Of a DNA stretch of 64,000 nt, positions 1-16,098 are shown piece after piece (the first letter of the stretch is position 1; the number at the start of each line of letters is the position of its first letter). This stretch comes from a virus. The DNA lies in IMG/VR virus record IMGVR_UViG_3300008448_008004, positions 1 through 64,000 of that record. The stretch is one strand, 5' to 3'. Made by a program: the position numbers and the translations under genes. The notes beneath the pieces were generated by a model that worked only from the letters and a program-made list of their open reading frames with translations, ran no database searches and had not been told where the DNA came from.

Positions 1-757
1 TTTTGATTTTTTGGTATGTATTTTTTATGTAATTTATTTCATCACCATCTACATCTCTTGCAAGTTGCAATATGATGTTATCAGTGTAATTAATATTTTT
101 TAATGAATCAATTACAGTTTTAAAATTGGTATCACCTAACCCAAAATGTTTTGTTTCACCATTAAAAGTTCTATCTTTAAAATGAACATTTTTTATTTTT
201 GACCCGAAGTAATTTATTAATTCTTCATGGTCTATTTTTTCTTTATATGTTGAGGTGAAATTACCGGTATCATAGGTAATAAAAAAATTGTCTTTTTTAT
301 TTACGACATCCATCACAATCTCTTTAATGCATTCAAATTCAAAACAAAAATTAATTGATGGGTATTTTTCAGATATTGGGATTATGTTTTTTAAAAATTC
401 ATATCTGATATATACATTTTCTACTGAACTATCTTCTAAAAGTGGTATTACTATTTTATTCAATTTTAGTTCTACCATTTTATCTAAAACAGGTACTAAA
501 TTTTGATTCATAAATTCATTTTTGTAAAATGAATTATTAACCATAGTGTCTACACAAACCGATAAGATGTTAGTGGGTAAATTAGATTCAATAAATAATG
601 GATTATTTAAGTTATCGTTTGGGGTTATTAACCACTCAATACCACTTAACTCAATATGATTTAAAACATTAAATTCGGATTTCCAGTTAAGTGGAAACTC
701 TTGCATTTTTTTATTGACCGGTTCACTAAGACGACCTTGTAAAACTCCTACTATCAT
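1..757 (-). CDS. Sugar-phosphate isomerase/epimerase, xylose-isomerase-like TIM barrel (3' end runs off the window)
   Basis: Not in the ORF track because it is truncated. ATG at 757 overlaps the stop of the VOC gene (ATGA). Translates MIVGVLQGRLSEP...IEW...IVIPLLE...YDTGN...NVHFKDR...GLGDTNF, motifs typical of this family. Confidence 0.75.
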   Translation of the reverse strand, partial: MIVGVLQGRLSEPVNKKMQEFPLNWKSEFNVLNHIELSGIEWLITPNDNLNNPLFIESNLPTNILSVCVDTMVNNSFYKNEFMNQNLVPVLDKMVELKLNKIVIPLLEDSSVENVYIRYEFLKNIIPISEKYPSINFCFEFECIKEIVMDVVNKKDNFFITYDTGNFTSTYKEKIDHEELINYFGSKIKNVHFKDRTFNGETKHFGLGDTNFKTVIDSLKNINYTDNIILQLARDVDGDEINYIKNTYQKIK

Positions 758-1167
758 AATAACTCAACAAATTCTATAATATTATTTTCTGGGTCCGAAC
801 CAAAAAAAACTTTAACCGTTTTTTCATCAGAAATTGTCGGCGTATTAATGATAGGTAAATTATTATCAATAAACTTATCGTAAAGAGTTTTAACATTATC
901 TATAGTTAATGCAAAATGAGTGTACCCGTTTTCAAAAAGACTTTTTTTATTTATTTTACAACTTCCAAAATAAAGTAATTCAACTATAATTTTATTTTCC
1001 CAACCCAATTTAATAATTCTTGGAGATTTATTAACAGAATTAAGTATATGGTTTAAAAACCGACCCTCTTCTATTTTATCATAAAGAATTTCCAATCCAA
1101 TTATATCTTGATAAAACCATAACATTTTATTCAAGTCGTTTACGACTATACCAACGTGCCTAAACAT
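754..1167 (-). CDS. VOC/glyoxalase family protein
   Basis: FRHVGIVVNDL...FY...G; HFALTIDN; DPENNIIEFVE are canonical VOC metal-binding motifs. Confidence 0.85.
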   Translation of the reverse strand: MFRHVGIVVNDLNKMLWFYQDIIGLEILYDKIEEGRFLNHILNSVNKSPRIIKLGWENKIIVELLYFGSCKINKKSLFENGYTHFALTIDNVKTLYDKFIDNNLPIINTPTISDEKTVKVFFGSDPENNIIEFVELL

Positions 1168-2480
1168 TCTATCAAACTTTCTTTTAAAACTCCGATACCT
1201 TCAATTAACGCATCATCATCAATAGTTAATGGAGGACCTATTTTTAATGTTCCTGATTGTGTCCTAATTGATAATAAACCTTTTCTCATTGCAACTTCTA
1301 TTATCATATCAACAAAATCAACGTCATTTCCATTTGGTGATTTGATGAAAACCCCCGCCAATAATCCTTTACAGTTTATTTTTTTTACATAATCAGGCAT
1401 TTCTTCTTTCCACTTTAATAATTCCGTTTCCATTATCTTACCTTTCCGATATGATTCGTTAATCAAATCATTATCTAAAAGATATTCTACAGAAGCTTTT
1501 GACGCGGCAACCGCAACAGGGTTACCCCCGTGTGTACTGTTGTATGACATATCGTTGTTAACAATTTTATTATTAGTTATAACACAAGATAATGGTAATG
1601 ATGATGATATACCTTTAGCGCAAACAATTATATCGGGAGTTACATCAAAATGTTCATAAGCAAATAATTTACCAGTCCTACCAAACCCTGATTGTATCTC
1701 GTCAATTATTAATAAAACTTTATTATCTTCACACCATTTTTTTAATAATTTAACATATTCTTTTGATGCAAATTCTGCCGACCATCCTTGGTAAGGTTCC
1801 ATAATTACTGCGGAATACTCATAAGGATTAATATCTTTAAAATATTTTTCAAAAAGTTCTTGAGGTAACAATCCTTCGTTTTCTAATGTTATGGTATCAG
1901 GATAAGGTAAATGTGTTACGTATGTTTTAACGGGTATCCATTCTTGTGATTTAAATTTACCACCCGCCATTGCAGAGCCCATAGTTTTACCATGATAACC
2001 ATTATTAAATGAAATGATTTTGTTTTTACCAGTATGTTTAATTGACATTTTAATCGCACACTCAACAGCCTCAGAACCCGTAGATAAAAATAAAACTTTA
2101 TCTAAATTTTTAGGTGTTATATCAACTAATAGTTTAGAAAATTCAGACCTCTCTTTGGTTGGGTAATAATATGCGTTTAATAAATTTTTATTAGTTGTAG
2201 AGATAATCGCCTCTTTTACTTTTGGGTTTGAGTGACCAACATTTGCAACAAATATTGACGAGGTAAAATCTATCCATTTATTACCTGATATATCATAAAT
2301 TGAATAGTCTGATGCTGAGTCCCACACAACAGGTAGTTGGTCATTCATTGAATTTGGCTCATACTTGATACAATCATTTAAATAATCTAATGATTGTGGT
2401 GATGGAATTGATGTTGTAATGTTTCTATAACGAGTTTTTACAAAATCACATTTAAATGGTGTTAACTGAAACTTATACAT
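1146..2480 (-). CDS. Class III PLP-dependent aminotransferase
   Basis: WIDFTS, GHSNP, TGSEAVE, YHGKT, EPYQG, DEIQSGFGRTG, AKG (PLP lysine), THGGNP. Confidence 0.92.
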   Translation of the reverse strand: MYKFQLTPFKCDFVKTRYRNITTSIPSPQSLDYLNDCIKYEPNSMNDQLPVVWDSASDYSIYDISGNKWIDFTSSIFVANVGHSNPKVKEAIISTTNKNLLNAYYYPTKERSEFSKLLVDITPKNLDKVLFLSTGSEAVECAIKMSIKHTGKNKIISFNNGYHGKTMGSAMAGGKFKSQEWIPVKTYVTHLPYPDTITLENEGLLPQELFEKYFKDINPYEYSAVIMEPYQGWSAEFASKEYVKLLKKWCEDNKVLLIIDEIQSGFGRTGKLFAYEHFDVTPDIIVCAKGISSSLPLSCVITNNKIVNNDMSYNSTHGGNPVAVAASKASVEYLLDNDLINESYRKGKIMETELLKWKEEMPDYVKKINCKGLLAGVFIKSPNGNDVDFVDMIIEVAMRKGLLSIRTQSGTLKIGPPLTIDDDALIEGIGVLKESLIECLGTLV

Positions 2481-3141
2481 TTTTTTTACTTAAGATATAC
2501 TCAATATAATTAAAATCATCAATAGTGTCAATTTCATAAGTTTTATCGGTAATAAATGAATAAATTCTATCCCCATAAAAACTATCCGAGTTCATAAAAA
2601 TTTCAGGTTTGACTATATCAACATAACCGTTAGGTGAATATGTTTTAGGATAACTCTGTCTGGGTAAATTAGTATCCAAGTTATCAACTATAGGTCTCCA
2701 AAACTCACCATTTTTTTTATAAAATTTATATACAGATTCTGAAGTTTCATGTGCGGACCTAAGACTTGTTATTTTGTTTTTATTTTTTAAAAACACTTCA
2801 ATGGCATCATCAATAACTAATGAATTTACTAAAGGAGTTGTTGCTCTTAAATGTATAATTGGTTCCGTATGGTTTAGTAATTTACAAAAATGTCTAAAAG
2901 AATCTATATCTAAAGATGTGTCAGTTGATAATTCGTAAGGTCTCATGATGGTTTTACACCCTAAATTTTTTGATATCTCAATTATCTCTTCGTCATCGGA
3001 AGAAACATATATGTCTTTAATTTTCTTTGATTGTTTAGCTGAAGTAATAACATATTCAATTAAAGGTTTACCGATTAATTCTTTTATGTTTTTTTTTGGG
3101 ATACCCTTACTACCACCCCTTGCTAAAATTAAGGCAATCAT
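2473..3141 (-). CDS. neuA: Acylneuraminate (CMP-nonulosonic acid) cytidylyltransferase
   Basis: ILARGGSKGIPKKNIK..GKPLI, VSSDD, RP.ELSTD, LRATTP, PRQ, NG, EIDT.DDF. Confidence 0.9.
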   Translation of the reverse strand: MIALILARGGSKGIPKKNIKELIGKPLIEYVITSAKQSKKIKDIYVSSDDEEIIEISKNLGCKTIMRPYELSTDTSLDIDSFRHFCKLLNHTEPIIHLRATTPLVNSLVIDDAIEVFLKNKNKITSLRSAHETSESVYKFYKKNGEFWRPIVDNLDTNLPRQSYPKTYSPNGYVDIVKPEIFMNSDSFYGDRIYSFITDKTYEIDTIDDFNYIEYILSKKNV

Positions 3142-3836
3142 TTTTTTTCTGCTTTACAAATTAACATAGCTTCTTTTGAGAATCTAATAATCTTGTTTGT
3201 TTTTTTACCCCATAATACTTTTTCAAATGGTGAGTATGGTAAAGGTAATTTTTGAATGATGTATCTAAAAATATTTAAAAATGGATATTTCCACGTTAAC
3301 GGTAATTGATAAAAATATTCACACTCAGAAACAAACCCAGATAGGTCACAAGCGGTTTCTAATGAATATCTAGTAAAAGGTGTAACATGTGTGTGGTCAA
3401 TATAGAAGGCTTCCTTATATGAATGTTTCCAACTTGGAGCCATACAAATTAATACGCCTCCCTTTTTTAACATTCTATATGATTCATCTAATAAAATATC
3501 CGGATTTTGTAGATGCTCAACAACAGATTTTGAAAAAATAAAATCAAATTTTTCATCTTTAAATGGGTATTTTTTTTCGTTTAAATTATAAGATTTAAAT
3601 TTTTTTGACGGTATGTTTTCTTTTGAGGAATTTGATATGTCCATTCCATAAGCATCTATACCACATTCAATAAAACATTTTGTTATTACTCCATCACCAC
3701 ATCCGATATCTAAAATCTTATCTCCTTCTTTTATGTTATATTTTTTTATAATATAGTTAACTAACTTTTTTGGGTAATCTGATTTATTTTCTTTATATGT
3801 TTTTTGAACATAATTAGGATTAAATATTGAACTCAT
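3138..3836 (-). CDS. Class I SAM-dependent methyltransferase
   Basis: ILDIGCGDG motif I; FDFIFSKSVVEHL; LKKGG. Confidence 0.9.
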   Translation of the reverse strand: MSSIFNPNYVQKTYKENKSDYPKKLVNYIIKKYNIKEGDKILDIGCGDGVITKCFIECGIDAYGMDISNSSKENIPSKKFKSYNLNEKKYPFKDEKFDFIFSKSVVEHLQNPDILLDESYRMLKKGGVLICMAPSWKHSYKEAFYIDHTHVTPFTRYSLETACDLSGFVSECEYFYQLPLTWKYPFLNIFRYIIQKLPLPYSPFEKVLWGKKTNKIIRFSKEAMLICKAEKK

Positions 3837-4552
3837 ATTTTTTCAGTTTTTAAAATTTCACTTAGACGTGATTCTACACTGGTGTTTATTATCTCAACGC
3901 CAATTTTTTTAGCACTATCGTTAATAATTCTAAAATCATTTAACATATTAGGTATAGTTGAGTCAAATTCCGTTGCCGATATTGGTGTCATATAAGAACC
4001 AAAATAACCTTTTTTATAGTCTAAATCTACCCCTGATACGTATATTTTTTTACACCCCAATAATATAGATAGGGCTAACATATGTACAGCAACAGTATCC
4101 CCCTCACTATATTTCTCAACATTACCTGTAAATTTTTGTAACTCTTCTTGTATTGTTAATCTATCACTAATAAAATTTTGACATCCGTTCGAACAACTAT
4201 AACACGTTTTATTATTAAAGTGTCTTTGGTCGTAACCCACATAATTTAAATTTCCTAAATTTTTTTCAATCCACCATCTAGGTGTTGAGTCTACTGAGTC
4301 TGCATGTACAAGTGATGTGTTGGGCATTCTTTTTAATCTATCAATTAAACTACCAACTTGTTGTGTATTCGCCCAAACCCAATAGTTAGGTTGTAAATCA
4401 CTTATCAAATCAATATCGTTACAAGAAACTAAAACTATATTTTTCCTTTCTTTTATAATATGTCCTATAGTGTCCGAAAGAGAAGGTCCTAAACCACAAA
4501 CAAATGATGTTTTGTCTTTCTCAAGGTTTATAATATCTTTTAAATTTTTCAT
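3833..4552 (-). CDS. CstII(GT42)/Maf/DUF115-like putative nonulosonic-acid (sialyl) transferase
   Basis: VCGLGPSL...VSCN...TVAVHMLALSILLGCKKIYVSGVDL parallels the CstII pattern IAGNGPSL...RCN...ALGYKEIYLSGIDF; lies two genes from neuA. Confidence 0.65.
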   Translation of the reverse strand: MKNLKDIINLEKDKTSFVCGLGPSLSDTIGHIIKERKNIVLVSCNDIDLISDLQPNYWVWANTQQVGSLIDRLKRMPNTSLVHADSVDSTPRWWIEKNLGNLNYVGYDQRHFNNKTCYSCSNGCQNFISDRLTIQEELQKFTGNVEKYSEGDTVAVHMLALSILLGCKKIYVSGVDLDYKKGYFGSYMTPISATEFDSTIPNMLNDFRIINDSAKKIGVEIINTSVESRLSEILKTEKI

Positions 4553-4560
4553 AATATTTT

Positions 4561-6207
4561 TTATATTTTTAAAGTAAGTTTTTTGTAAATAATATCATCT
4601 GGCAACAAATATTTTTTTGATTTATTAAAATTATTTTTAATACTTTCTAGTCTTTTTATATAGTCATCTATAGATAAATTATTTATGATGTCCACTAACT
4701 CCTCAACATTGTCAAAAATAATCATACCGTTAGTGTCAAAAAAATCACCTATTGAAGGACACCCCCAATAAATTGGTACTGTTCCTGTTACAAAACAATC
4801 AATTAGTTTTTCAGTAAACCAATAATCTCTTTTAGTATTTTCCACTACGATGTGAAATTTATATTCTTTTAGTCCGTCAAGTTTATAGTCTATTGGGTTA
4901 TAAGTTCTACCGTATACGTCTATTTTACCATTTAATTGGTTAATAATATCGTGTCTTAATCTGTGACCATTTGTTTGAGTCTTATTTGATGATATTATAC
5001 TTATCATTTTTGATTTGTTGTAAATTTTTTGGTCCTCAGGTTTTATCCAACAACATCCAAATGGTAATAATTCATAATTTTCACCCTTGTCTAATAGTGA
5101 CTTTTCGTGTGTGAACACTTTTTTAAATTTATTATTGTTATTAACAATAAAATCATATGTATAAGATGCAATTTCTTTTGGCTCAATTAACCAAGCGATA
5201 GAATTATAGTTATTTGTAACTTCCCCTAATCTGGCGTCGGTATAAACAACAAAATCATTATCGTTTTTATTAAAATTTTCTCGTTTCCATTTAAAAAATA
5301 ATGAATCTTGGTAATCACTGCAGTAACCTATTTTTGAATGTGCAAATGTTAAGTCTATAAGATTAATAGTGTCGTTTTTTGTTTTTACTAATAAACCATT
5401 ATCATAATTAACGTTTACTTTGACCCACCCATCAACATATATGTTATCATAATCTTTAAAACCTTTAGGTCCAAACCACATACTTGGACATAAAACTTTT
5501 TTATTTTTGTTTTTATTTAAAAACGCGGACCACCATGAAAATGTTGAGTTTGATATTACGTTATTTTCACATAAACTCATCATCCATAAATCTTCATAAT
5601 CTTGTAACTGGTCAACAAAAACCGCTTTAGAAGATTTAATATTATTTTTAACCCAATTAATATCATCACTAAAAACATAAAATACATCAGTTAAGTCATC
5701 CAAAAGATTTATACAATAATTAATATAACTTAAATCTACTGATGGTAGTATGTCGTTTATGGTAAGATAATCACCTCTTCTAATGTGTATTGAAGTTGAT
5801 TTTTCATTTTTAAAATTTGGATACAAAGATTTTAATTTTGCAATAAAATTATTATCAGGACCAAACATTTTTTTTACATGTTCATCATAACCAAAAAAAT
5901 TGTTTAAACTTTGGTAATAACCATAGAATTCTATATTACTATCCCAAGAAAAATTTAAATTAGGTTTATTCCATGTTTCTTCAGAAACTCTTTTTTTATT
6001 AATAATTTTATCAACAAATTTTACATTTTTAAAAATGTTATCAACATAATTAATAGTTTGTTTAGATTGTGACATTGGGGTATAAGACACGGGTTCAAAA
6101 ACACTTTCTTTGTTATTTTTTAATCCTTGACAAACCGCATGTGCGATTTGAAACATTTGATTACCTAAGCCGCCCATCAAATAAGCAGTTGAATAAAAAT
6201 TTTCCAT
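4561..6207 (-). CDS. Fusion of GT11 (alpha-1,2-fucosyltransferase-like) and GT10 (alpha-1,3/4-fucosyltransferase-like) domains
   Basis: N-half: GGLGNQMFQ, GYYQS, SIHIRRGDY, VFSDD, NSTFSWW (GT11). C-half: YKFHIVVEN...YWFTEKLIDCFVTGTVPIYWG (GT10 motif). Confidence 0.85.
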   Translation of the reverse strand: MENFYSTAYLMGGLGNQMFQIAHAVCQGLKNNKESVFEPVSYTPMSQSKQTINYVDNIFKNVKFVDKIINKKRVSEETWNKPNLNFSWDSNIEFYGYYQSLNNFFGYDEHVKKMFGPDNNFIAKLKSLYPNFKNEKSTSIHIRRGDYLTINDILPSVDLSYINYCINLLDDLTDVFYVFSDDINWVKNNIKSSKAVFVDQLQDYEDLWMMSLCENNVISNSTFSWWSAFLNKNKNKKVLCPSMWFGPKGFKDYDNIYVDGWVKVNVNYDNGLLVKTKNDTINLIDLTFAHSKIGYCSDYQDSLFFKWKRENFNKNDNDFVVYTDARLGEVTNNYNSIAWLIEPKEIASYTYDFIVNNNNKFKKVFTHEKSLLDKGENYELLPFGCCWIKPEDQKIYNKSKMISIISSNKTQTNGHRLRHDIINQLNGKIDVYGRTYNPIDYKLDGLKEYKFHIVVENTKRDYWFTEKLIDCFVTGTVPIYWGCPSIGDFFDTNGMIIFDNVEELVDIINNLSIDDYIKRLESIKNNFNKSKKYLLPDDIIYKKLTLKI

Positions 6208-6208
6208 A

Positions 6209-6937
6209 TTATAGTGGTTTATATTTTTCTAAGTTTCTTATTATGTTTGCACATCTTTGTTGTTCTGTTTGTCCTGCACGAGCATTTTCTTTGTGTTCGT
6301 TATGTGGATTTTCTTCATTATATACTAGTAATATTTCAGGTATAAATTCATAATGTTTATCACCACACATCTCAATCATAGGGTATGAGTATGCAACATC
6401 AGGAGCTGCTTTAAAATATTCTCCATTTTCATCGGTAAATGATGATTCATCAATATTACGCCAAAGATGAACTTTCCATGTTCTCAAATGTGAAAACGAA
6501 AAAATATCCGTTCTAACTGTTTTATATTTTACTTTATTTGAAAATCCTATTCTACCATTTGAATAAACAAAACTTCCGTTAGTTAACCATAAATCTTTAT
6601 TTTTTTCATATTTGTTGTTAATAAACCCTAAGACTTTATCATCATACAACCAATCATCCCCATCCAATTCAACAATAACGTCATCATCTTTGAATAATAA
6701 TTCATCCATTAATAAATCATCCATGTTTTTTAGTTTATATTTTTTTTCTTTATTTTCTATTAGTATAAACCTATCATCCCCCTCAATTAGTTTTTTTATT
6801 ATTTTCACCGTATTATCAGTGGAAACATCATCAACCAAGTACATTTTGAAATTTTTATGTAATTGATTTTTAACTGAATTAATACATTTTTCAATATAGT
6901 TTTCGGCATTCCAAAAACAACTAACAACTTTAATCAT
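6209..6937 (-). CDS. Glycosyltransferase family 2
   Basis: WNAENYIEKCINSV..Q, LVDDVSTD, ELDGDD (DxD). Confidence 0.88.
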   Translation of the reverse strand: MIKVVSCFWNAENYIEKCINSVKNQLHKNFKMYLVDDVSTDNTVKIIKKLIEGDDRFILIENKEKKYKLKNMDDLLMDELLFKDDDVIVELDGDDWLYDDKVLGFINNKYEKNKDLWLTNGSFVYSNGRIGFSNKVKYKTVRTDIFSFSHLRTWKVHLWRNIDESSFTDENGEYFKAAPDVAYSYPMIEMCGDKHYEFIPEILLVYNEENPHNEHKENARAGQTEQQRCANIIRNLEKYKPL

Positions 6938-8570
6938 TTAAAATTTTGATATATTCTTTTTTTATTTTTTTAGCAACTTCTTCTGAATTAAATTTATTAA
7001 TGTCAGAAGGGACTTCATATTTATTTTTTTCTATAATATTACCATAATTGTCGACATTGTAAATCCATCCTGACTTACCACACATCCAACCTTCTATTGT
7101 TGTTCTACCTAATAAAATTCCTGCGGTCTCACTACAATTTTTCACATATTCCTCAACTTTATTAGTTGCACCAAAATGCTTAACATGTGTGTTTTCTAAC
7201 AACTCCGGTAAATAATTTGATTTGTTTTCACCAACTAACCAAAGTTCTTTACCTATTGATTTTGAATACTCAACTAAATCTCTAATTGTTTTTTCTCGTA
7301 AATAATCAATTGTTCCAACAAATAATACATAGGGATATGTCTTCGTATTTTTAGTATTAAATCTTTTAGTGTCTATTGGATTATAAATAACTTCAGTGTC
7401 AGATGAACTAATGTTAAAGTTATTAACTATATGTTTTTGTATTTCTGGTCTAATGCAAATATATTTTTTTATTGATTCGTGTATAAAAGGATTTTCTAAT
7501 TCAATTACCTCAGAGTGTATCGTTGATATTTTTGGGGTATTTGGATACATCTCCGTAATTTGTTTTGAAATTGGATTGTGTTGAATATGCATAATATCAA
7601 AATTTACATCTGACATTTTATACATCATATTTGGTTGACTTGTAACAACACCTTGAGGGGTATTGAATCCCCATTTTCCGTCACCCATTTTATAACCTGG
7701 TGGGTTAGAGAATGGTAACACTTTTATTCCTTGTTGGGATGCTAATTTTGAAAGCGGACCTTCAATATCTGAAAGAACCGTAACATCACAATTAAGTTTT
7801 TTTAACCCTTTGGCTAATTCATAAACATACATTTCAGAACCAGTAAAGGTTTTAAAAAATAAACAAGATAGTAAAACTTTAATCGGTGATTCTAATGTTA
7901 GGTTTCTTTTGATTTTTACAGGAAGAATGTCTTTGTGTCTTTCAGAAAAAATAATCCTATTTTTTTCCCATTCTTCGTTAGTCGCTCCAATTGATTTATG
8001 TGTGACTCTAACGTCATACATAACCCCAATCTTAACGTCTTCTATAAAGTTTCTAAATGAAAAATCAACATCGTAGAAGTGAAATCCTTTTATTTCTTCA
8101 TTAAAAGTTTCTATAATATTTTTTTTATTTATAACAATAAAAAGACCATCAATTAAAACTACATCATCTATTTGATTACCTAAACTTGAGGAATATTTTG
8201 ATTCCCATTTTTTACCTTCGTGTTCATGATTTACAATACCTTTCATTTTAGAAAAGTCTTCCCACCATTTTGCGGTTGATGGAAGTTGTGTTGAACCTGC
8301 TAGTCCTAAAATCCCATATTCAGGATTTCTTTTAAAATGTTTTAAAATCTTACTACCCCAATTCTTACTATCAAAGTAAATGTCATCATGACACAAAACA
8401 ACAATATCATTTGTTGATTGTTCTAAAATCATATTATAAGCTTCAGGTAAAGAATACTTTCCTTCATTTTCAATTGGGATGATTTCTGGATTAGAAACTC
8501 CACACGTTTTTTTTAACAACTCAATAAAATTACTATCTACCTTTCTTGAAGAAAAACCTATTGTAATCAT
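6930..8570 (-). CDS. Two-domain glycosyltransferase: GT2-like N-domain plus GT-B (GT4-like) C-domain
   Basis: N: YN..LEQSTNDIVVLCHDD, IDGLFI, GFHFYDVD. C: TGSEMYVYELAKGL, IYNPID..RF, LFVGT, GRTTIEGWMCGK. Confidence 0.8.
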   Translation of the reverse strand: MITIGFSSRKVDSNFIELLKKTCGVSNPEIIPIENEGKYSLPEAYNMILEQSTNDIVVLCHDDIYFDSKNWGSKILKHFKRNPEYGILGLAGSTQLPSTAKWWEDFSKMKGIVNHEHEGKKWESKYSSSLGNQIDDVVLIDGLFIVINKKNIIETFNEEIKGFHFYDVDFSFRNFIEDVKIGVMYDVRVTHKSIGATNEEWEKNRIIFSERHKDILPVKIKRNLTLESPIKVLLSCLFFKTFTGSEMYVYELAKGLKKLNCDVTVLSDIEGPLSKLASQQGIKVLPFSNPPGYKMGDGKWGFNTPQGVVTSQPNMMYKMSDVNFDIMHIQHNPISKQITEMYPNTPKISTIHSEVIELENPFIHESIKKYICIRPEIQKHIVNNFNISSSDTEVIYNPIDTKRFNTKNTKTYPYVLFVGTIDYLREKTIRDLVEYSKSIGKELWLVGENKSNYLPELLENTHVKHFGATNKVEEYVKNCSETAGILLGRTTIEGWMCGKSGWIYNVDNYGNIIEKNKYEVPSDINKFNSEEVAKKIKKEYIKILND

Positions 8571-9184
8571 AAACCTGTACTTCCGAAACCATTTTCGTTT
8601 CTATCTTTTTCTTTTATTTCTTTAACTTGAATAAGGTTAACTAATTTGGCAATCGCAACAGGACTAAGTACTGCTTGTGCGATTTTTTGACCCTTTTCAA
8701 TTTTTTTTGTTTGATTTGTTGTGTTAAAAATAATAACCTTTATTTCACCTGTATATCCATTATCTACAGTTCCTGGTGAATTTAATACCATTAATCCTTC
8801 TTTTAATGCTAATCCACTTTTTGACCTGACTTGAATTTCATATCCAGGAGGAATATCAAATTTTAAACCTGTCGGAACCAACGCTCTATCAAAAGGATTT
8901 AATAATACTTCTTCATTAGACCTTAAATCAAAACCTGAATCATAATCATAAACATAAGAAGGATTTTTATTTTCACTATCATTTACATAGTTTAAATTTA
9001 CTTTCATATAATCTGATGACATTTCATCATCAATTTCTTCAAAATGTTTGTTTATATCGTTTAGATTAAACCCCATTGATTTTAACATTTCTTCAGGGTT
9101 ATTCATGTCAATATTACCTATTTTAGATTGTAGGTCTTTTAACATTTTAAATTGTTCTCTAGCTTCTTTAATTTCTTTAAACAT
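8567..9184 (-). CDS. dut: Trimeric dUTPase with ~60-aa N-terminal extension
   Basis: SGFDL, VRSKSGLA, NSPGTVDNGYTGEI, IAQAV, RNENGFGSTG (motifs I-V). Confidence 0.95.
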   Translation of the reverse strand: MFKEIKEAREQFKMLKDLQSKIGNIDMNNPEEMLKSMGFNLNDINKHFEEIDDEMSSDYMKVNLNYVNDSENKNPSYVYDYDSGFDLRSNEEVLLNPFDRALVPTGLKFDIPPGYEIQVRSKSGLALKEGLMVLNSPGTVDNGYTGEIKVIIFNTTNQTKKIEKGQKIAQAVLSPVAIAKLVNLIQVKEIKEKDRNENGFGSTGL

Positions 9185-9185
9185 A

Positions 9186-9914
9186 TTATTTTAATGATTT
9201 TAATTTTAAAATTCCGTTTATTAATACTTCGACATCTTTTTCGCAGTATTCTACAATTTCAGTTAATCTATTGTGTGACCAGTAAGCTTCGTGAACCATA
9301 CCACCATTTATGGGTCCGTCTTTAGGGGTAGGTATTTCTAAACAGGCACACATCAAATCTAATGAACCAATTGATGAGTAGGCTCCGTATTGCCAAATTT
9401 CTTTAGTGTCAATCGCTTTAACTTCCCAAGGCTTAGTATCGTATGAAGGTAACATTTTGGATGGTCTAATACCATTAATAATCATACGTTTTGCCAACAT
9501 AGGTATATCAAAGTTCTTTAGGTTATGCCCACATAGATAGAAATCTAATTTACTACATCTATCTAAAAGGGTTCTTACTTCCATTAGTAAGTCATGTTCA
9601 TTATCACCTGAAAAACTTTGTTTTTTAACTTCTCCATTCTCCATAACAAATGCGACAGACACACAAACAATTTTCGCAAATTCAGGAACTAGTGCAGTTC
9701 TTTTTGCATATACATCATTCATTTTTTGCATTTCATCTTCCAACCCGTTTGTTTCTACATCGTCTTCAGGGAAACGTTTTAAAAACCAATCAAAGTATTT
9801 AACAAATTGTTCTGCAATTTTTGGATTGGTGTTTTGACAAGTGCTCCAATCTTTACAAATACCGACAGTCTCGATATCTAAAAATAAAATTTTGTTAATA
9901 GGTATGTTTATCAT
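9186..9914 (-). CDS. Stand-alone DEDDy 3'-5' exonuclease (PolB-exo-like)
   Basis: FLDIETV (ExoI), GHNLKNFDIP (ExoII), YCEKDV (ExoIII). Confidence 0.85.
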   Translation of the reverse strand: MINIPINKILFLDIETVGICKDWSTCQNTNPKIAEQFVKYFDWFLKRFPEDDVETNGLEDEMQKMNDVYAKRTALVPEFAKIVCVSVAFVMENGEVKKQSFSGDNEHDLLMEVRTLLDRCSKLDFYLCGHNLKNFDIPMLAKRMIINGIRPSKMLPSYDTKPWEVKAIDTKEIWQYGAYSSIGSLDLMCACLEIPTPKDGPINGGMVHEAYWSHNRLTEIVEYCEKDVEVLINGILKLKSLK

Positions 9915-11125
9915 TTTACTAAGGATTTATATAATTCTGCTCTATCTCTTGTTACTTTATTTAAATCATATGTGTCTTTAACTGTTTCATACAATCTTTG
10001 ACCTAAATCGTATGCGAAGTTAGGGTTATCGATTAATTTTTTCATGTATTTAGCCCAATCACTATGACTTCTTGCTTCATCAACAAGTAATGCATTACCA
10101 TCTGTAAATTCACCATTTTTCATAGCGTGTTTTAAATCGACAGTATATGGACCAACATTAGAGGCGATGATTGCTTTTTTATAGAATCCCGCCTCAATTA
10201 CTTTTAATTGTGATTTAACTCTATTAAAAATGTGATTTTTAATTGGGGCTAATGATACATCAAACCATTTATAGTTATTAGCATAACTTGTTACTGGTTT
10301 AGTCCAAACTCTATTATAGAAAGGTAATTCATCTGATTTATATTCTTCTTCAACAAATTTCATTAAAAAATCTTTATGTGATGGATTAACTAATTTGTAA
10401 TTATCAGTAAATATTTCTTCATATCTTGACCAAACAGTCTCTTCAGGTTTAATATCACGTTGTTTTTGTTCACCTGTTTGTTGATTGATTTCAGTAACCG
10501 TTCCTCTAATATCAAAACCACAAAGATACATACTAAATTTATCTTTTAATGGTGTTAATTTATTCATAGTTCCATCTAAAAGTTTTAAATCGTGAAGGTG
10601 AGATGAACCACCTAACCAACCAAATCTTAACTTATCGGATGGTTCAGTTTTAGCATTAAATTGAGGTTCTTTTGGATTAATCGCATTTGGAAGTACGTAA
10701 ACATTTTTATTAAATTTAGATATTTCTTTTGCAAAAATAGATGTAGTTGTGGTAACATGACCAGCAACTTTTAGGTTATTAATAATTTTTTTATGTAATT
10801 CTGTTTGTATAACCATTTGATGAACTGGATGCTCTTTTGTTGGTAACCAATAATCATCTAAGTCCATTATAGTGACGATACCTAAATTATTTAATTTTTG
10901 AATTAAGTTAACTGAGTTTTCATAATCATGACCAACCGTTCTGTGGAAATGAACTATATCGTATTGTTTCCAATAGTTTAAATCATTAACTTTTGGTTCG
11001 TAATCAATATCAATATGAAATTCATCCGCGTGATTATTTTGTAGACAGACATGTGGGTCAACACTTCTAAATTTCCCAACTCCCGTTTTGTCTGACGGTA
11101 ATACTAAAACTTTTATTTTACTCAT
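9911..11125 (-). CDS. GT-B fold glycosyltransferase (GT4-like)
   Basis: GVGKFR..P, DLDDYW, VLPNAI, GWLGGSSHLHDL, DVSLAPI...FNRVKSQLKVIEAG, IIASNVGPY. Confidence 0.8.
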   Translation of the reverse strand: MSKIKVLVLPSDKTGVGKFRSVDPHVCLQNNHADEFHIDIDYEPKVNDLNYWKQYDIVHFHRTVGHDYENSVNLIQKLNNLGIVTIMDLDDYWLPTKEHPVHQMVIQTELHKKIINNLKVAGHVTTTTSIFAKEISKFNKNVYVLPNAINPKEPQFNAKTEPSDKLRFGWLGGSSHLHDLKLLDGTMNKLTPLKDKFSMYLCGFDIRGTVTEINQQTGEQKQRDIKPEETVWSRYEEIFTDNYKLVNPSHKDFLMKFVEEEYKSDELPFYNRVWTKPVTSYANNYKWFDVSLAPIKNHIFNRVKSQLKVIEAGFYKKAIIASNVGPYTVDLKHAMKNGEFTDGNALLVDEARSHSDWAKYMKKLIDNPNFAYDLGQRLYETVKDTYDLNKVTRDRAELYKSLVK

Positions 11126-11156
11126 ATTATTTTTTTTATAATAAAAGTAATGTATT

Positions 11157-11190
11157 TAAAATAAAAAATCCACCCCTTTTGAGAGTGGAT
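11157..11190 (-). terminator. Intrinsic terminator
   Basis: Minus strand ATCCACTCT-CAAAA-GGGGTGGAT followed by TTTTTATTTT, just downstream of the 11212-11829 gene. Confidence 0.75.
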
Positions 11191-11211
11191 TAACATTACA
11201 ATGTTATTTAT

Positions 11212-11830: not shown

Positions 11831-12232
11831 CTATGCTAAGTTTTCAGTGTTATCGTCAAATTTTGCGTTTACAATAACTCTAACCATTGAATTGTCACCG
11901 TTAGGGTTATATAAAGGTCTGACTTCATTAAACTTATCCCCTTGTAAAGCATAAGTCAATATTTTATCTAATCTAAACATCCTCCAACCTGGAATTGGGT
12001 TGCCCTCAACTTTATTTGAGTGTGATGCTCCTTGTCTTTCCCAAGCTCTCAATACCATATTACCTTTTTTACTAATACCTAAGCAAACTGGTTCAATGTC
12101 ACGATATCCTTTACCGTACTCATCACCTTGGTAATTAATAGTGATTACATTTTTTTGCTTGATGCTTTTTTGAACATCATCAATAGATGCAACTTCCGTA
12201 ATTAGTTTGCTTAAAGTTTTAATTAACTTCAT
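11831..12232 (-). CDS. Stand-alone WYL-domain protein
   Basis: I....VITINY...G.RDIEPVCLG....NMVLRAW....GWRMFRLDKI matches the WYL pattern (R.vEP..L...wyl.a......R.FRlDRI); no HTH present. Confidence 0.75.
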   Translation of the reverse strand: MKLIKTLSKLITEVASIDDVQKSIKQKNVITINYQGDEYGKGYRDIEPVCLGISKKGNMVLRAWERQGASHSNKVEGNPIPGWRMFRLDKILTYALQGDKFNEVRPLYNPNGDNSMVRVIVNAKFDDNTENLA

Positions 12233-12522
12233 GATATGTTATAATAAGGATTGTTTGGTGAAAATTTATTTATTTTTAAATCATCTTTTCTTTCTGCGAT
12301 ATCAGTAGATGTTCCCGCACCTTGATTGTAAACATCTAATTCACCGCCAGTCCCCCTACCAATTTTATCTCCATCTGCTATTGCATCAGGGTGAACTGAT
12401 GAGTATTGGTCCGCGGGATTGAAGTCATTTCTTGGAAATAACTTTTTTCTTTGTTCTTCCGCAATTCTAGATAATTCGTTGTTTGGTTGCGAAAAATCCA
12501 TTTTATCTGATTGAACTGCCAT
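12229..12522 (-). CDS. Hypothetical protein
   Basis: 97-aa ORF with overlapping start/stop junctions on both sides. Confidence 0.7.
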   Translation of the reverse strand: MAVQSDKMDFSQPNNELSRIAEEQRKKLFPRNDFNPADQYSSVHPDAIADGDKIGRGTGGELDVYNQGAGTSTDIAERKDDLKINKFSPNNPYYNIS

Positions 12523-12986
12523 TATAATATTTTTTGATATAGTTTATTCATTAATTTAATTTCTTGTTCCACTCTTACATCTATGTCACTATTTGTTTTT
12601 GTGTGACTATCTAAAGGATTTTTAATTAGTTGGTCTTTTTGGTGAGAGTCAATAAATTGATTTTGCATTCCCGCATTCATTTTTACATTTTTACCACTTT
12701 TATCATTATCTCTCCAAATTCTTAAAACCTCATCACACCAACTTTTCATTCTATCGCCACCATTTAAAATAAACGGGGCGTCCTCTTTTTTACCATTGTA
12801 GTTGTCAAACCAACTTTTAATTCTTTTTATTTGTTGATATGTTGCTTGTTTTGATTGTCTTAGTTGTTGATTTCTATTATACCCCTCAATATTTTGATTA
12901 CCCTGCACAGTACTGAAACAATCATTAAGATGTTTAACTAAACTATCAGGAATTATAGCAATTCTATCGTATAAGTTTTTATTCAT
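12522..12986 (-). CDS. Hypothetical protein
   Basis: 154-aa ORF in a coupled operon. Confidence 0.7.
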   Translation of the reverse strand: MNKNLYDRIAIIPDSLVKHLNDCFSTVQGNQNIEGYNRNQQLRQSKQATYQQIKRIKSWFDNYNGKKEDAPFILNGGDRMKSWCDEVLRIWRDNDKSGKNVKMNAGMQNQFIDSHQKDQLIKNPLDSHTKTNSDIDVRVEQEIKLMNKLYQKIL

Positions 12987-13722
12987 CTTTTAACATTTGC
13001 ATTAAATCTCTTACAGAAACACCATGTTCTTTAGCCATTTTCTTTAATGACCTAATGTTTCTAATTAATAGAGGGTTAATTAAATCTTTTAATTTTCCTT
13101 TTTCTGTATTATTTTCTTCTTTTTCTTTGTTTAACAATACATCCTCATCTATTTCTTTTTCTTTTAAAATTGGTCTACCTACAAATCCTTTTTTGTTTTT
13201 GAATTTAGATTTTTTATCTCTTTCGGGGCTTTTACCAAATTCATCATCAACTCTCACTTCCGCCTTTTCATCATCCATACCCAATTCATCTTTGAAGTAA
13301 TCTAAAGTTTCTTTAGCGTCCATGTCTTTTGTGTCTTTCCATCCAAAAGCTTTGGTCATGTTTTCTTCTTTTACATGACTTTCACCGTAATACCCATACC
13401 ACCCTCTTAACAACGGGTCTCTTGGGTTTCTTGCGGCTGGAACAATTTGGTCTGTTGTTTTTGTTCCCACACCTGTACTTGCGGGGTCCATAATGCGATT
13501 ATTAGATGATAACCATGTTCCGTCATCATCAATTAACTCAGTAACTTCCTGTTCGACAGGTTCCTCATCAGAAGATTTTATTTTTTTTAAAAATATTTCG
13601 TGGGACTTACATGGCATATATTTTCTATCACCATTTTCATTATGATAGTGTGAACCAGTACAACCAAGAGTCTTTGCAACTCTTTCTGCCCTTTCTTCTG
13701 TTGAGTATTTGTACGTTTTCAT
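12979..13722 (-). CDS. Hypothetical protein with N-terminal DUF3721-like Cys/His module
   Basis: YSTEERAERVAKTLGCTGSHYH...YMPCKSH resembles the A....GC.G.H....WMPC signature; preceded by a TATTTAT motif. Confidence 0.65.
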   Translation of the reverse strand: MKTYKYSTEERAERVAKTLGCTGSHYHNENGDRKYMPCKSHEIFLKKIKSSDEEPVEQEVTELIDDDGTWLSSNNRIMDPASTGVGTKTTDQIVPAARNPRDPLLRGWYGYYGESHVKEENMTKAFGWKDTKDMDAKETLDYFKDELGMDDEKAEVRVDDEFGKSPERDKKSKFKNKKGFVGRPILKEKEIDEDVLLNKEKEENNTEKGKLKDLINPLLIRNIRSLKKMAKEHGVSVRDLMQMLKDE

Positions 13723-13736
13723 CTGAGCTTTTACCT

Positions 13737-13762
13737 ATAAATACTCCAAACAAAGTATTTAT
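13737..13762. promoter_or_regulatory. Back-to-back TATTTAT motifs (divergent putative late promoters)
   Basis: ATAAATACT-ccaaacaa-AGTATTTAT lies between divergent starts at 13722 (-) and 13774 (+). Confidence 0.6.
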
Positions 13763-13773
13763 CATAAAAAAGA

Positions 13774-15654
13774 ATGCCTACACAAAATTTAAATACATAT
13801 TATTACCCGAAGTACAAAACTTTTTTGAATTCAAGGCAGTATTTTGATTTGACATTAGCTGCGGATGAAAGGGATTATGACGAGGAGGTTGTATTTTCTA
13901 CAGATATAATTGCGGCAAATGACGGGACAAGATTACCAATCAATTTAGATTTGAACAACACGGATTCTTGCCCTCAACTTACAATGTCTTTTGATGTGTT
14001 TTATAGTGGAGCAACATTACTTTCTAAAAATTATTACAATCCCGATAATTTAGATTTAAATTGTTTATCTGCGTTTACAGGAACTTGTGATATTGGTTTG
14101 ACTGCAACTGACAATGGTTTATATACAGGTATGACAGGTCAGACATTATACTACACTATGGGTATAAGAAATGATTATAAGTTTCACCCACACTATTACG
14201 ATAGAAGAATGAAACTTCACATGGTAACGGGATATACAACATCACCTAATACCGTGTTTTCAGGTAGACCAAAAAATGTCATATACAATATAGTTTCTAA
14301 AACTGAACCAGGTATTGGATATTATCAAGAATTGTATGGTGGGTTTTATCAAGGATTTTATAAATTATTTGGTTATGATTATGAAGTTTTCCCTGAAAGA
14401 ATGAACAAAGGGTGGACTATGGAAACAGTTATTAAACCAAGAATAACTGATGAATACTCAATTAGTGCGTCTACTGAAGAATACTTAAACACAAGATATC
14501 CTGAAAATGCTGGAACGTTTTTTTACTTTGGTACAAGAGCTGAGAATAAATATTATCATTTTGCCGATGGTAAACCTGCCAGTGATAGTGGTTATACAAG
14601 AGTAACTTCAGGTCTAACAAGTTTATCAAGTTGTACTTGTAATGAAACGGGATATACGAATGCAAATTGTGTAAAACTATACCCAACAAGTGCAACAACC
14701 GCATATCATAATATAGGTTGTGGTTGTGGTTCGTGTACAGAACAATTACCTGTCCCACCATTAGACCCTAAATTTGATGTGTTATCGAACGCATTATCAA
14801 TTAGATTTAGTGGTTGTGCTGCAGACCCAAGAGTCTGTGTTAAGACAATTGTAATTACCGGTGATTGTGTTACAACGGGTTCTTGTGAGACAACAGGTTT
14901 AACATGGCAAACAGGTTATACAATAACTGAAGTTTGTAGTCCCCCAATTTATGATGTATGTGATTATATATGTTCAGCAATAACACATGATAGGTGGGTA
15001 ATGGTAACCGCGGTATTTGAAAGGTATACCACAATAGAAGAATGTGATTTATTGAACTTAGGTGGTTTAAATGATATAAGACAAGTCACATATCAATCAA
15101 TATTAAATAACACATCTTATAATTTAATAATGCCACCTGAAACACACTCCGGTGGAACTAAGGAGGATAAGGTATATCGGGTAGTATTTGATAGAAGATG
15201 GTTTGATGATGAGTCATATAGATTAGGCAGATTAAAAATATACATCAACGGGTATTACTTTATGGTTATTGAGAACTTTGAAGAGATAATACCGAGAGAA
15301 TTAAATTGTGAAAAAGAAAAACAATTAGGGGTTCCGTTTAATATATCATGGGGAGGTGGTTCTCAAGGACTCCACGACAATTTAATTTTTTCCGCAAGTT
15401 CAGCAACAACAGGTTCTTATACCCAAGACCCTGAACTTTTCCCAAATGAAATACTTTCAGCGACCACGTATAGTGGATTAACAACACAAATTTTAATGGA
15501 ACAAAATTTTGGTGGGACTTTTATGGGAGGAATATCACAATTTAGAATGTATACCGAGGCATTCAATAGCTCACAGGTTCAACATAATTTTAGAATCTTA
15601 AAAGACCGATTTAATCTTTTTGATTTTTGGTGTCCTAATTGTTTAACAAGTTAA
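13774..15654 (+). CDS. Cys-rich putative virion protein with split LamG/concanavalin-like domain
   Basis: GWTMETVIKP, GTFFYFG, WVMVTAVF, LKIYING, FMGGISQFRMY...SSQVQHNF are LamG-like strands interrupted by Cys/Thr-rich inserts. Confidence 0.6.
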   Translation: MPTQNLNTYYYPKYKTFLNSRQYFDLTLAADERDYDEEVVFSTDIIAANDGTRLPINLDLNNTDSCPQLTMSFDVFYSGATLLSKNYYNPDNLDLNCLSAFTGTCDIGLTATDNGLYTGMTGQTLYYTMGIRNDYKFHPHYYDRRMKLHMVTGYTTSPNTVFSGRPKNVIYNIVSKTEPGIGYYQELYGGFYQGFYKLFGYDYEVFPERMNKGWTMETVIKPRITDEYSISASTEEYLNTRYPENAGTFFYFGTRAENKYYHFADGKPASDSGYTRVTSGLTSLSSCTCNETGYTNANCVKLYPTSATTAYHNIGCGCGSCTEQLPVPPLDPKFDVLSNALSIRFSGCAADPRVCVKTIVITGDCVTTGSCETTGLTWQTGYTITEVCSPPIYDVCDYICSAITHDRWVMVTAVFERYTTIEECDLLNLGGLNDIRQVTYQSILNNTSYNLIMPPETHSGGTKEDKVYRVVFDRRWFDDESYRLGRLKIYINGYYFMVIENFEEIIPRELNCEKEKQLGVPFNISWGGGSQGLHDNLIFSASSATTGSYTQDPELFPNEILSATTYSGLTTQILMEQNFGGTFMGGISQFRMYTEAFNSSQVQHNFRILKDRFNLFDFWCPNCLTS

Positions 15655-15656
15655 TT

Positions 15657-16010
15657 ATGGAATTTTTTATAAAACAAAATACAACTTTACCCATAGTAAA
15701 AATGGATGTAGTTTTTGACGGTAGAACAGATGCTGGTGAAAATTTTTATTCTGTATTAGACAACGCCACTTTAAGGTTTTCTATGGTTAATGAGCAAACG
15801 GGCATCCCAAAAATTCATATGAAACAGGCATATATTGTTGCAAAAGACAAAAGAAATCCTGACTCGCCGTGGGAGTATTACATTTACTATAAGTGGTCAG
15901 GGAAGGACACAAACACCAAAGGAAGGTTTATAGGTGAATTTTTAGTGGTGTTAGAGTCAGGAGAGTTAATATCACCAATCAGAGAAAATCTTTATATCAA
16001 TATTATTTGA
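15657..16010 (+). CDS. BppU-N-like small structural/adaptor protein
   Basis: Likely start is ATG 15657 (MEFFIKQNTTLP); FFIKQN.TLP...Y.W...DT...G.F.GEF.V pattern. Confidence 0.55.
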   Translation: MEFFIKQNTTLPIVKMDVVFDGRTDAGENFYSVLDNATLRFSMVNEQTGIPKIHMKQAYIVAKDKRNPDSPWEYYIYYKWSGKDTNTKGRFIGEFLVVLESGELISPIRENLYINII

Positions 16011-16037
16011 CAAGGGTAAATTTTACACTTATATTTA
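16006..16037 (+). promoter_or_regulatory. Host-sigma (early/middle) promoter for DNA polymerase
   Basis: TTTGACA-N17-TATATTTA fits both TTGACA/17/TATAtT and the Bacteroidota TTTG-N20-TAnnTTT(G) consensus. Confidence 0.65.
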
Positions 16038-16098
16038 GGACGAAGGTAAATGTTACATTTATGTGACAGCTAATACACCAAACTTAAATATAAAAATT

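Follow-up and report, generated by a model that had tools for sequence, protein, structure and literature searches.

Viruses that glycosylate their own particles do so with soluble, virus-encoded glycosyltransferases that modify structural proteins in the cytoplasm, and the giant viruses add nucleotide-sugar pathways of their own; chlorovirus and mimivirus, for example, glycosylate their proteins autonomously. To our knowledge, none of the known virus-encoded virion glycosylation systems uses a nonulosonic or ulosonic acid, and we found no description in the literature of phage- or virus-encoded synthesis of nonulosonic or sialic acids. Here we analyze a gene cluster at the beginning of the IMG/VR record IMGVR_UViG_3300008448_008004 that appears to encode the synthesis and transfer of such an acid within a larger glycan-biosynthesis operon, and for which a virion target is favored as well. 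The window that we analyzed comprises bases 1-64000 of this 93.8-kb linear record (CheckV 23% complete); since it begins at contig base 1, its left edge is also the contig end. The source looks like a large uncultured aquatic T4-like myophage, apparently lytic, and other genes in the window encode PolB, helicases, tail sheath, baseplate proteins, DnaB, and RNR. Its PolB is ~24% identical at most to PolB of any deposited phage, and at the DNA level the cluster had no match among 50,697 deposited phage records. Another virus-encoded system places O-glycans on the capsid and tail tube of mycobacteriophages (Freeman et al. 2023, as cited in PMC12619734); PMC12619734 itself, the 'moraphage' paper, describes four core glycosyltransferase groups in large aquatic phages, to which no link of the present lineage is established.

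Cyanophage P-SSM2 resembles the phage studied here in being a large lytic T4-like aquatic myophage in which genes for sugar epimerases, dehydratases, transferases, and synthases form a big block. A PhoH gene adjoins the cluster in a relative and counts as a further likeness to P-SSM2, with both functions assigned from sequence alone. The flagellin glycosylation systems of Campylobacter and Helicobacter, which use pseudaminic (Pse) or legionaminic (Leg) acid, together with the sialyltransferase CstII, resemble the phage cluster in linking a NeuB-family synthase, a CTP_transf_3 cytidylyltransferase, a PtmA-like short-chain dehydrogenase/reductase (SDR), and a DUF115/GT42-fold transferase, and soluble cytoplasmic enzymes are common to the Maf/CstII systems and the predicted phage pathway. 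However, Maf proteins have ~600 aa and the phage enzyme is a minimal domain of 239 aa; no flagellin gene is linked to it, and the PseB/C/H/G or LegB/C/H/G set is replaced by a class III aminotransferase, a VOC protein, a TIM barrel, and an SDR. Judged from the predicted genes, what is particular here is a jumbo T4-like genome, a very large transferase complement with GT10, GT11, and a GDP-sugar branch, and a non-classical ulosonic-acid module.

The cluster proteins were compared by tblastn with the deposited phage records, which we assume to include P-SSM2. NeuB was found in two uncultured records, a marine Kyanoviridae single-cell virus (60% identity) and a 484-kb huge phage, and in one doubtful Moritella contig, the cytidylyltransferase in the doubtful Moritella contig only, and the MptE-like protein in none of the 50,697 records. 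These three genes, absent or nearly absent from deposited phages, set the present phage apart from P-SSM2, as does its divergent PolB. In the Kyanoviridae record (L010; MH319754.1, Marine virus AG-345-L05), which belongs to this family of T4-like cyanophages, positions 12358-16130 encode an SDR (52%), the NeuB, and a small HAD phosphatase (52%), with a GT11-like gene nearby; the module is therefore also present in marine Kyanoviridae.

Twelve minus-strand open reading frames (ORFs) occupy window 2-11125, and eight of their eleven junctions overlap by 4-22 nt, with gaps of 1-8 nt at the other three (Table 1). The ORF list thus bears out a first, sequence-only reading of this DNA, which had described twelve co-oriented genes, most of them overlapping. 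Its count of about seven transferase domains was also correct according to Pfam and, for the first gene, an AlphaFold model: two GT4-type GT-B domains, two of GT2 type, one GT11, one GT10, and a minimal GT42/Maf-fold enzyme. Four tailoring genes accompany them, for a SAM-dependent methyltransferase, a class III aminotransferase, a VOC/glyoxalase protein, and a xylose-isomerase-like TIM barrel. The glycan genes of the earlier inventory stand, but a dUTPase and an exonuclease that also belong to the twelve had not been named. At its 5' end, the operon is bounded by the terminator-like hairpin upstream of the first gene; across four relatives, the stem and T-run of this hairpin do not vary but its loop does. 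On balance, we favor the view that window 1-11191 is the promoter-proximal half of a glycan-biosynthesis operon of ~20-22 kb that is integral to the phage.

Sigma-70-like promoter sites were no more frequent than in shuffled sequence. The word TATTTAT showed no overall enrichment (45 and 24 copies versus ~60 expected per strand by a rough estimate) and had no copy directly upstream of the operon. Beyond the hairpin, five further small genes extend the same-strand run to 13722 in the upstream direction. A stand-alone WYL-domain protein and a DUF3721-containing protein are encoded upstream of the terminator.

Table 1. Features of the glycan cluster and its upstream flank, in window coordinates; functions are predicted from family matches.
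Feature	Position	Strand	Length (aa)	Match or remark
Xylose-isomerase-like TIM barrel	2..757	-		PF01261, 39.2 bits; 3' end lost at contig end
VOC/glyoxalase-fold protein	754..1167	-	137	PF00903, 35.4 bits
Class III (omega-type) PLP aminotransferase	1146..2480	-	444	PF00202, 290 bits
CMP-ulosonate synthetase, CTP_transf_3 (NeuA/PseF/LegF family)	2473..3141	-	222	PF02348, 99 bits (cutoff 22.6)
SAM-dependent class I methyltransferase	3138..3836	-	232	PF13489, 73.9 bits; PF08241, 67.3 bits
Minimal MptE-like/DUF115 protein	3833..4552	-	239	PF01973, 45.9 bits (cutoff 34.6)
GT11-GT10 fusion	4561..6207	-	548	GT11: PF01531, 90.4 bits (cutoff 23.9), aa 7-264; GT10: PF00852, 39.8 bits (cutoff 23.9), aa 397-514
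GT2 glycosyltransferase	6209..6937	-	242	PF00535, 64.9 bits
Two-domain glycosyltransferase	6930..8570	-	546	N-terminal GT-A, Glyco_tranf_2_5 (PF13712, 99 bits, aa 15-210); C-terminal GT4-type GT-B, Glyco_transf_4 (PF13439, 47.6 bits, aa 244-403)
dUTPase	8567..9184	-	205	PF00692, 85.7 bits; not a glycan gene
PolB-exo-like 3'-5' exonuclease	9186..9914	-	242	PF10108, 47 bits; not a glycan gene
GT-B glycosyltransferase, GT4 (retaining) type	9911..11125	-	404	First operon gene; weak Pfam match, Glyco_trans_1_4, E 2e-3
Terminator-like hairpin	11167..11191	-		10-bp stem and T-run, ~40 nt upstream of first operon gene
Stand-alone WYL-domain protein	11831..12232	-	133	
DUF3721-containing protein	12979..13722	-	247	
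626-aa protein	13774..15654	+	626	No Pfam/PHROG match; divergent from the operon's strand run

The cluster has close relatives in seven IMG/VR contigs from different samples and metagenomes, all with the same layout. Two of them (L002 and L004) are collinear with window 13109-1 (13.1 kb) at 88% nucleotide and 67-99% amino acid identity. The TIM barrel that is cut at the contig end has 252 of its ~255 codons in the window, and its residues 1-252 are 98% identical to the 255-aa L002 protein. Past this gene, L002 and L004 encode a PtmA-like SDR and a GmhA-like SIS isomerase (180 bits). The relatives also carry a 278-aa NeuB-family synthase without SAF domain (PF03102, 209 bits), and past it a 325-aa ORF with no Pfam match, for which the Atlas gives, purely as a lead, a viral 'glycosyltransferase family protein' cluster. 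Next come a capsule-type (EcbF/BcbF) HAD-IIIA phosphatase of 99 aa, a DUF6492 protein (257 aa in L002), an Fcl-like epimerase/reductase, a DegT aminotransferase, GDP-mannose 4,6-dehydratase (GMD, 409 bits), PhoH, and two more glycosyltransferases. The NeuB-type synthase and GDP-sugar genes that had been expected left of the edge thus exist at the corresponding place in syntenic relatives, from which we infer a continuation with NeuB, HAD, SIS, SDR, GMD, Fcl-like, and DegT genes in this phage as well. In relative G001 (L012 2898-4776), a weak GT-B match and a GT2 gene lie downstream of PhoH, and the glycan locus therefore reaches past GMD.

Conservation is uneven along the locus. Close relatives share 83-98% identity in the precursor genes but 36-64% in GT2, GT10, GT11, and the MptE-like gene, which are also rearranged; the transferase block is thus a variable cassette like those of O-antigen loci. 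The GT2 gene, 43-45% identical in L006 and L008, is therefore part of this cassette, and extra genes present in close relatives encode an FkbM-methyltransferase/SGNH protein, a GT8, and a UDP-galactopyranose mutase. GT11 and GT10 are fused, with GT11 N-terminal, in the window and in L002, whereas L006 (5764-7354) and L008 (6906-8433) have two genes, GT10 before GT11, with 36-56% identity between fused and separate counterparts. Judged from these sequences, the two domains were rearranged recently within the variable cassette.

Repeated recovery also bears on the concern, raised with the sequence-only reading, that host DNA was joined to the phage contig by misassembly or mis-binning. The sugar module does have cellular homologues, and GC is slightly lower over window 1-10000 (0.27-0.29 versus 0.29-0.36 in most of the remaining window). 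However, junctions and gene order are the same in seven contigs of different metagenomic origin, dUTPase, exonuclease, and PhoH genes of phage type lie among the sugar genes, and the aminotransferase has no cellular homologue closer than 44% identity. Moreover, in a single 121-kb relative the cluster (~52-74 kb) is flanked by the tail sheath (34.5-37.7 kb) and by the major head (~82 kb) and portal (~88 kb) genes. Because the same arrangement was recovered in at least seven separate metagenome assemblies and has phage flanks in the 121-kb contig, a chimeric join is ruled out for practical purposes, and of all the explanations considered here it is the most improbable. The low GC of window 1-10000 is compatible with a laterally acquired or fast-evolving island.

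The predicted products of the module begin with the cytidylyltransferase, which carries the N-terminal nucleotide-binding motif of its family (ARxGSKGxxxKN) as LILARGGSKGIPKKN, i.e. ARGGSKG...KN. Its best NCBIfam model is PseF (TIGR03584, 109 bits, below the 205.7-bit cutoff), no KdsB model exceeds 58 bits, and its best solved relatives are the CMP-Neu5Ac (N-acetylneuraminic acid) synthetases 6ifd and 1eyr. The proposed NeuA-type CMP-activating enzyme is thereby upheld, with CMP-Neu5Ac synthetases and PseF as the closest families, and its linkage to NeuB is seen in relatives L002, L006, and L008. The nearest solved relatives of the aminotransferase are GABA, acetylornithine, and putrescine aminotransferases and isoleucine 2-epimerase; its closest cellular homologues, distant as they are, are located in operons with NeuB and cytidylyltransferase. 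For the TIM-barrel protein, a sequence search gave no solved relative.

The MptE-like protein is a candidate CMP-ulosonate transferase with GT42/Maf fold. In a Foldseek search, the top matches of its AF2 model (pLDDT 93) were CstII, Maf 5mu5, a P. multocida sialyltransferase, and archaeal MptE (E ~1e-6, TM ~0.5), with animal GT29 sialyltransferases as further matches, so that the predicted fold agrees with the CstII/Maf-like transferase proposed earlier. A PDB sequence search with the protein returned GT42 sialyltransferases alone, as weak matches, and some homologues have a precomputed PF06002 match. The family alignment has G22, S24, R110, H111, R131, Q135, E136, and G174 invariant, and H157, D176, Y179, and Y183 nearly so. 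In CstII, the catalytic base and the residues that bind the CMP phosphate are His188, Tyr156, and Tyr162.

Of the other transferases, the GT11 domain shows motif I (HxRRGDY) as HIRRGDY at aa 141, with YVFSDD following at aa 177. The GT10 family motif, FxxxFENSxxxxYxTEK, is present in the GT10 domain in a variant form, HIVVENTKRDYWFTEK (VENT....YWFTEK), near aa 455-468. Pfam scores and motifs together sustain both assignments. Their donor is plausibly GDP-fucose, where 'fucose' is meant at the level of the families. The product of the first operon gene belongs to a family with 4137 members at E<=1e-3, and its AF2 model (pLDDT 95.5) has GlgM, PglA, BshA, MshA, and PimA as top Foldseek matches (E 1e-14 to 1e-11); the modeled fold confirms the GT4-type GT-B assignment.

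Which acid the module would make was approached through the genes that accompany it. Five related records contain no NeuC/LegG/PseG-type epimerase (Epimerase_2) and no sugar-1-phosphate nucleotidyltransferase or NDP-sugar pyrophosphorylase. No N-acetyltransferase was found by Pfam scan among the L002 ORFs of at least 80 aa between the TIM barrel and GMD, of which the 325-aa and DUF6492 ORFs have no assignment. The relative's NeuB scores 226 bits against a NeuB_NnaB cutoff of 400 and 153 bits against a PseI cutoff of 340; in L002, the only record so scored, Gmd reaches 409 bits (cutoff 415) and the Fcl-like protein 196 bits (cutoff 500). The earlier suggestion of a possibly sialylated and fucosylated glycan therefore holds at the level of enzyme families, but the classical accessory genes for Neu5Ac, Leg, or Pse are missing and a different conserved module stands in their place. 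From its gene content, this non-classical module, NeuB-cytidylyltransferase-class III aminotransferase-VOC-TIM-SDR, is predicted to be a sugar route other than the classical Neu5Ac, Leg, and Pse routes. A GDP-6-deoxyhexose other than fucose is a possible product of the Gmd/Fcl-like pair, and the DegT of the relatives could make a GDP-4-amino-6-deoxyhexose.

To describe the genomic neighborhood of viral NeuB, we scanned IMG/VR with a NeuB alignment, which gave at least 552 stretches, and counted partners within 8 kb of the gene in the best 80. Cytidylyltransferase (48), small HAD (47), and SDR (45) were the most frequent neighbors, followed by DegT (35), Fcl-like (30), and GMD (26). The TIM barrel (24), VOC (22), class III aminotransferase (18), MptE-like protein (17), and methyltransferase (16) were found at fewer loci. 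The order (MptE)-NeuB-cytidylyltransferase-class III aminotransferase-(methyltransferase)-VOC-TIM-SDR-(HAD) recurs in diverse viral contigs.

For cellular loci, one genome per prokaryotic species was scanned with an aminotransferase alignment, and the best 80 loci (L093-L172) were retained. Cytidylyltransferase was a partner in 53 of these, NeuB in 49, VOC in 47, SDR in 33, methyltransferase in 28, and the TIM barrel in 27. The same order occurs in many groups, among them Omnitrophota, Woesearchaeota, Methanoperedens, Nitrospirota, Chlorobium, Algibacillus, Methylophilaceae, and Achromatium. A typical cellular operon reads NeuB-CTP_transf_3-class III aminotransferase-VOC-(methyltransferase)-TIM-SDR-SDR, sometimes with a GmhA-like SIS gene (e.g. 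L094, L101, L123, and L142). Because its gene order recurs across bacterial and archaeal phyla, we conclude that the phage module derives from a widespread cellular operon, whose genes and order match those of the phage and which is its evident source, although identity is only 24-50%. The cellular loci differ in two of the partners: no small MptE-like gene lies within 10 kb of any of the 80, and a small HAD accompanies 4 of them, in contrast to 47 of the 80 viral loci. No characterized product of the cellular operon with NeuB, aminotransferase, VOC, TIM, and SDR was found in the literature.

A possible route can nevertheless be outlined. A host sugar phosphate would be isomerized by the SIS enzyme, condensed with phosphoenolpyruvate (PEP) by NeuB, and then dephosphorylated; the trio of NeuB, small phosphatase, and SIS suggests, by analogy, a sugar-phosphate condensation as in the 9-phosphate route to KDN (2-keto-3-deoxynononic acid). 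The SDR would then oxidize and the class III aminotransferase would transaminate the product, probably at the terminal carbon, before methylation and/or epimerization and activation as a CMP-sugar. In Shewanella, the 8-aminated octulosonic acid Kdo8N is made by oxidation by KdnB and transamination by KdnA at the terminal carbon. This pathway offers a chemical analogy for an SDR and omega-type aminotransferase pair acting on an ulosonic acid, although it uses other enzyme families and starts from 8-carbon Kdo made by KdsA, not NeuB. Since the phage aminotransferase falls in the omega-aminotransferase group, a terminal aldehyde made by the SDR and then transaminated as for Kdo8N is a reasonable guess. 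Given the GmhA-like isomerase, the substrate may be a heptose-7-phosphate and the product a 10-carbon acid. Candidate acids may thus include a KDN-type sugar with a terminal amino group and N- or O-methylation, or a 10-carbon acid formed from heptose-7-phosphate and PEP. CMP-activated ulosonic acids of more than 9 carbons are described in Magnetospirillum (bioRxiv 10.64898/2026.04.20.719630).

On the neutral side of the glycan, host GDP-mannose would be converted to a GDP-6-deoxyhexose (fucose-type) and a GDP-4-amino-6-deoxyhexose. The oligosaccharide would be assembled in the cytoplasm by the soluble transferases, with the acidic sugar added by the Maf/CstII-like enzyme. As a rather unlikely but specific proposal, the NeuB-HAD-cytidylyltransferase-aminotransferase-VOC-TIM-SDR(-GmhA) module would make a novel CMP-ulosonic acid, to be placed on virion proteins by the minimal, phage-enriched Maf-like transferase.

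The genes and their surroundings also bear on the acceptor. The most likely acceptor would be the phage's own virion proteins, modified during assembly to give a strain-variable sugar coat, a reading that we favor although its odds are in our judgment about even; the Maf-like transferase and the location of the cluster between virion modules favor it. No transmembrane helices were predicted in any of the 25 cluster proteins. No match to a priming Bac_transf (PF02397) or a Wzx flippase (PF01943) was found in the five related fragments, which sets the cluster apart from Wzx/Wzy- or ABC-dependent O-antigen and capsule loci, where these enzymes belong.

As the main alternative, the same enzymes could remodel the host envelope during infection, i.e. 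its lipopolysaccharide (LPS), O-antigen, capsule, or S-layer glycan; the glycan would then be assembled on lipid-linked or core acceptors of the host, with export by host machinery. Lipid- or glycan-linked molecules are the usual acceptors of CstII and of GT2, GT4, GT10, and GT11 enzymes, a variable set of transferases beside conserved precursor genes is also seen in O-antigen loci, and the SDR-NeuB-HAD trio is present in a marine Kyanoviridae record. For cyanophage P-SSM2, too, the 24 'LPS genes' were proposed to act on the host envelope (Sullivan et al. 2005, PMC1079782). Yet the five related fragments yielded no priming phosphoglycosyltransferase, flippase, or polymerase, the cluster contains no membrane proteins and sits between virion modules, and for a phage that looks lytic and T4-like the gain from altering the surface of a doomed cell is unclear. 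We regard this alternative as possible but doubtful. If it were true, the phage would profit from superinfection exclusion or from a smaller loss of progeny to cell debris.

A protein acceptor might also lie outside the virion, in host flagellin, pilin, or S-layer protein or in non-virion phage proteins; the minimal Maf-like enzyme would then modify it, and motility or receptors would be altered. Maf-family enzymes are known only as flagellin nonulosonic-acid transferases, and Maf 5mu5 is among the top fold matches of the MptE-like protein. However, no flagellin or pilin gene is linked to the cluster, and six further transferase domains imply an oligosaccharide and not a single sugar, which leaves this alternative improbable.

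Within the window, a candidate for the acceptor of a virion glycan is the 626-aa protein encoded divergently from the operon, which may alternatively be a repeat-rich fiber. The word [ST][GA]xT occurs in it 17 times versus 1.2 expected from composition (z 15.5), and is also enriched in the tail sheath (z 4.5) and in several proteins at 65-84 kb, the fiber region (up to z 12). Such an enrichment fits a sequon.

Several points weigh against a virion glycan of the proposed kind. The motif enrichment could stem from fiber or beta-helix structure or repeats instead of a sequon. The glycan itself is predicted from genes, both the sequence of the tailoring steps and their chemistry are guesswork, and all equivalog-level NCBIfam scores are below cutoff (PseF 109/206, NeuB 226/400, Fcl 196/500). 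The NeuB, HAD, SIS, SDR, and GDP-sugar genes lie outside this contig and are taken from relatives. All records are fragments (CheckV 2-31%), so that flippase or priming genes may lie elsewhere, or host enzymes may serve, and the missing export genes are therefore weak evidence. Soluble GT2, GT4, GT10, and GT11 enzymes normally use lipid- or glycan-linked acceptors at the membrane face, and solubility therefore cannot separate a virion from an LPS target. Finally, CstII, the best fold match of the MptE-like protein, acts on lipooligosaccharide and not on protein.

The two genes of the operon that are not glycan genes raise one further possibility, namely that the cluster hypermodifies phage DNA with sugars, as in the glucosyl-hydroxymethylcytosine of T4 or arabinosyl-hydroxymethylcytosine. 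In every close relative, the dUTPase and exonuclease genes separate the first glycosyltransferase gene from the second. L002, L006, and L008 have an exonuclease of 73-98% identity at this position, and the dUTPase, at 61-72% amino acid identity in relatives, is the most divergent member of the conserved block. This conserved placement between glycosyltransferase genes would suit DNA modification, but the three largest fragments contain no thymidylate-synthase-family hydroxymethylase, the first GT-B matches GlgM, PglA, and BshA, and no T4 DNA glucosyltransferase is among its listed top folds. Furthermore, we know of no role on DNA for CMP-ulosonate or GDP-6-deoxyhexose donors or for GT10-, GT11-, or GT42-type enzymes. 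Given the GT4-type fold matches and the lack of a hydroxymethylase in those fragments, we rejected DNA hypermodification as highly improbable.

If a novel ulosonic acid is indeed made and placed on virion proteins, the cluster would be the first virus-encoded ulosonic-acid pathway and its product a 'self-sialylated' phage particle. Some abundant aquatic phages would then devote ~20 kb to an acidic, fucose-decorated glycan of their own, not one borrowed from the host. Since at least 552 IMG/VR stretches encode related NeuB genes, the phenomenon is broad. The sugar module is a lead in itself, as an uncharacterized ulosonic-acid pathway that is common to many bacterial and archaeal phyla and compact enough for reconstitution in E. 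coli. Sialic-acid-like caps govern recognition, charge, and shielding from proteases and immunity. On a virion, such caps could set adsorption specificity, stability, or stickiness to particles and mucus, and variation in the transferase cassette would add a new axis to the diversity of phage strains.

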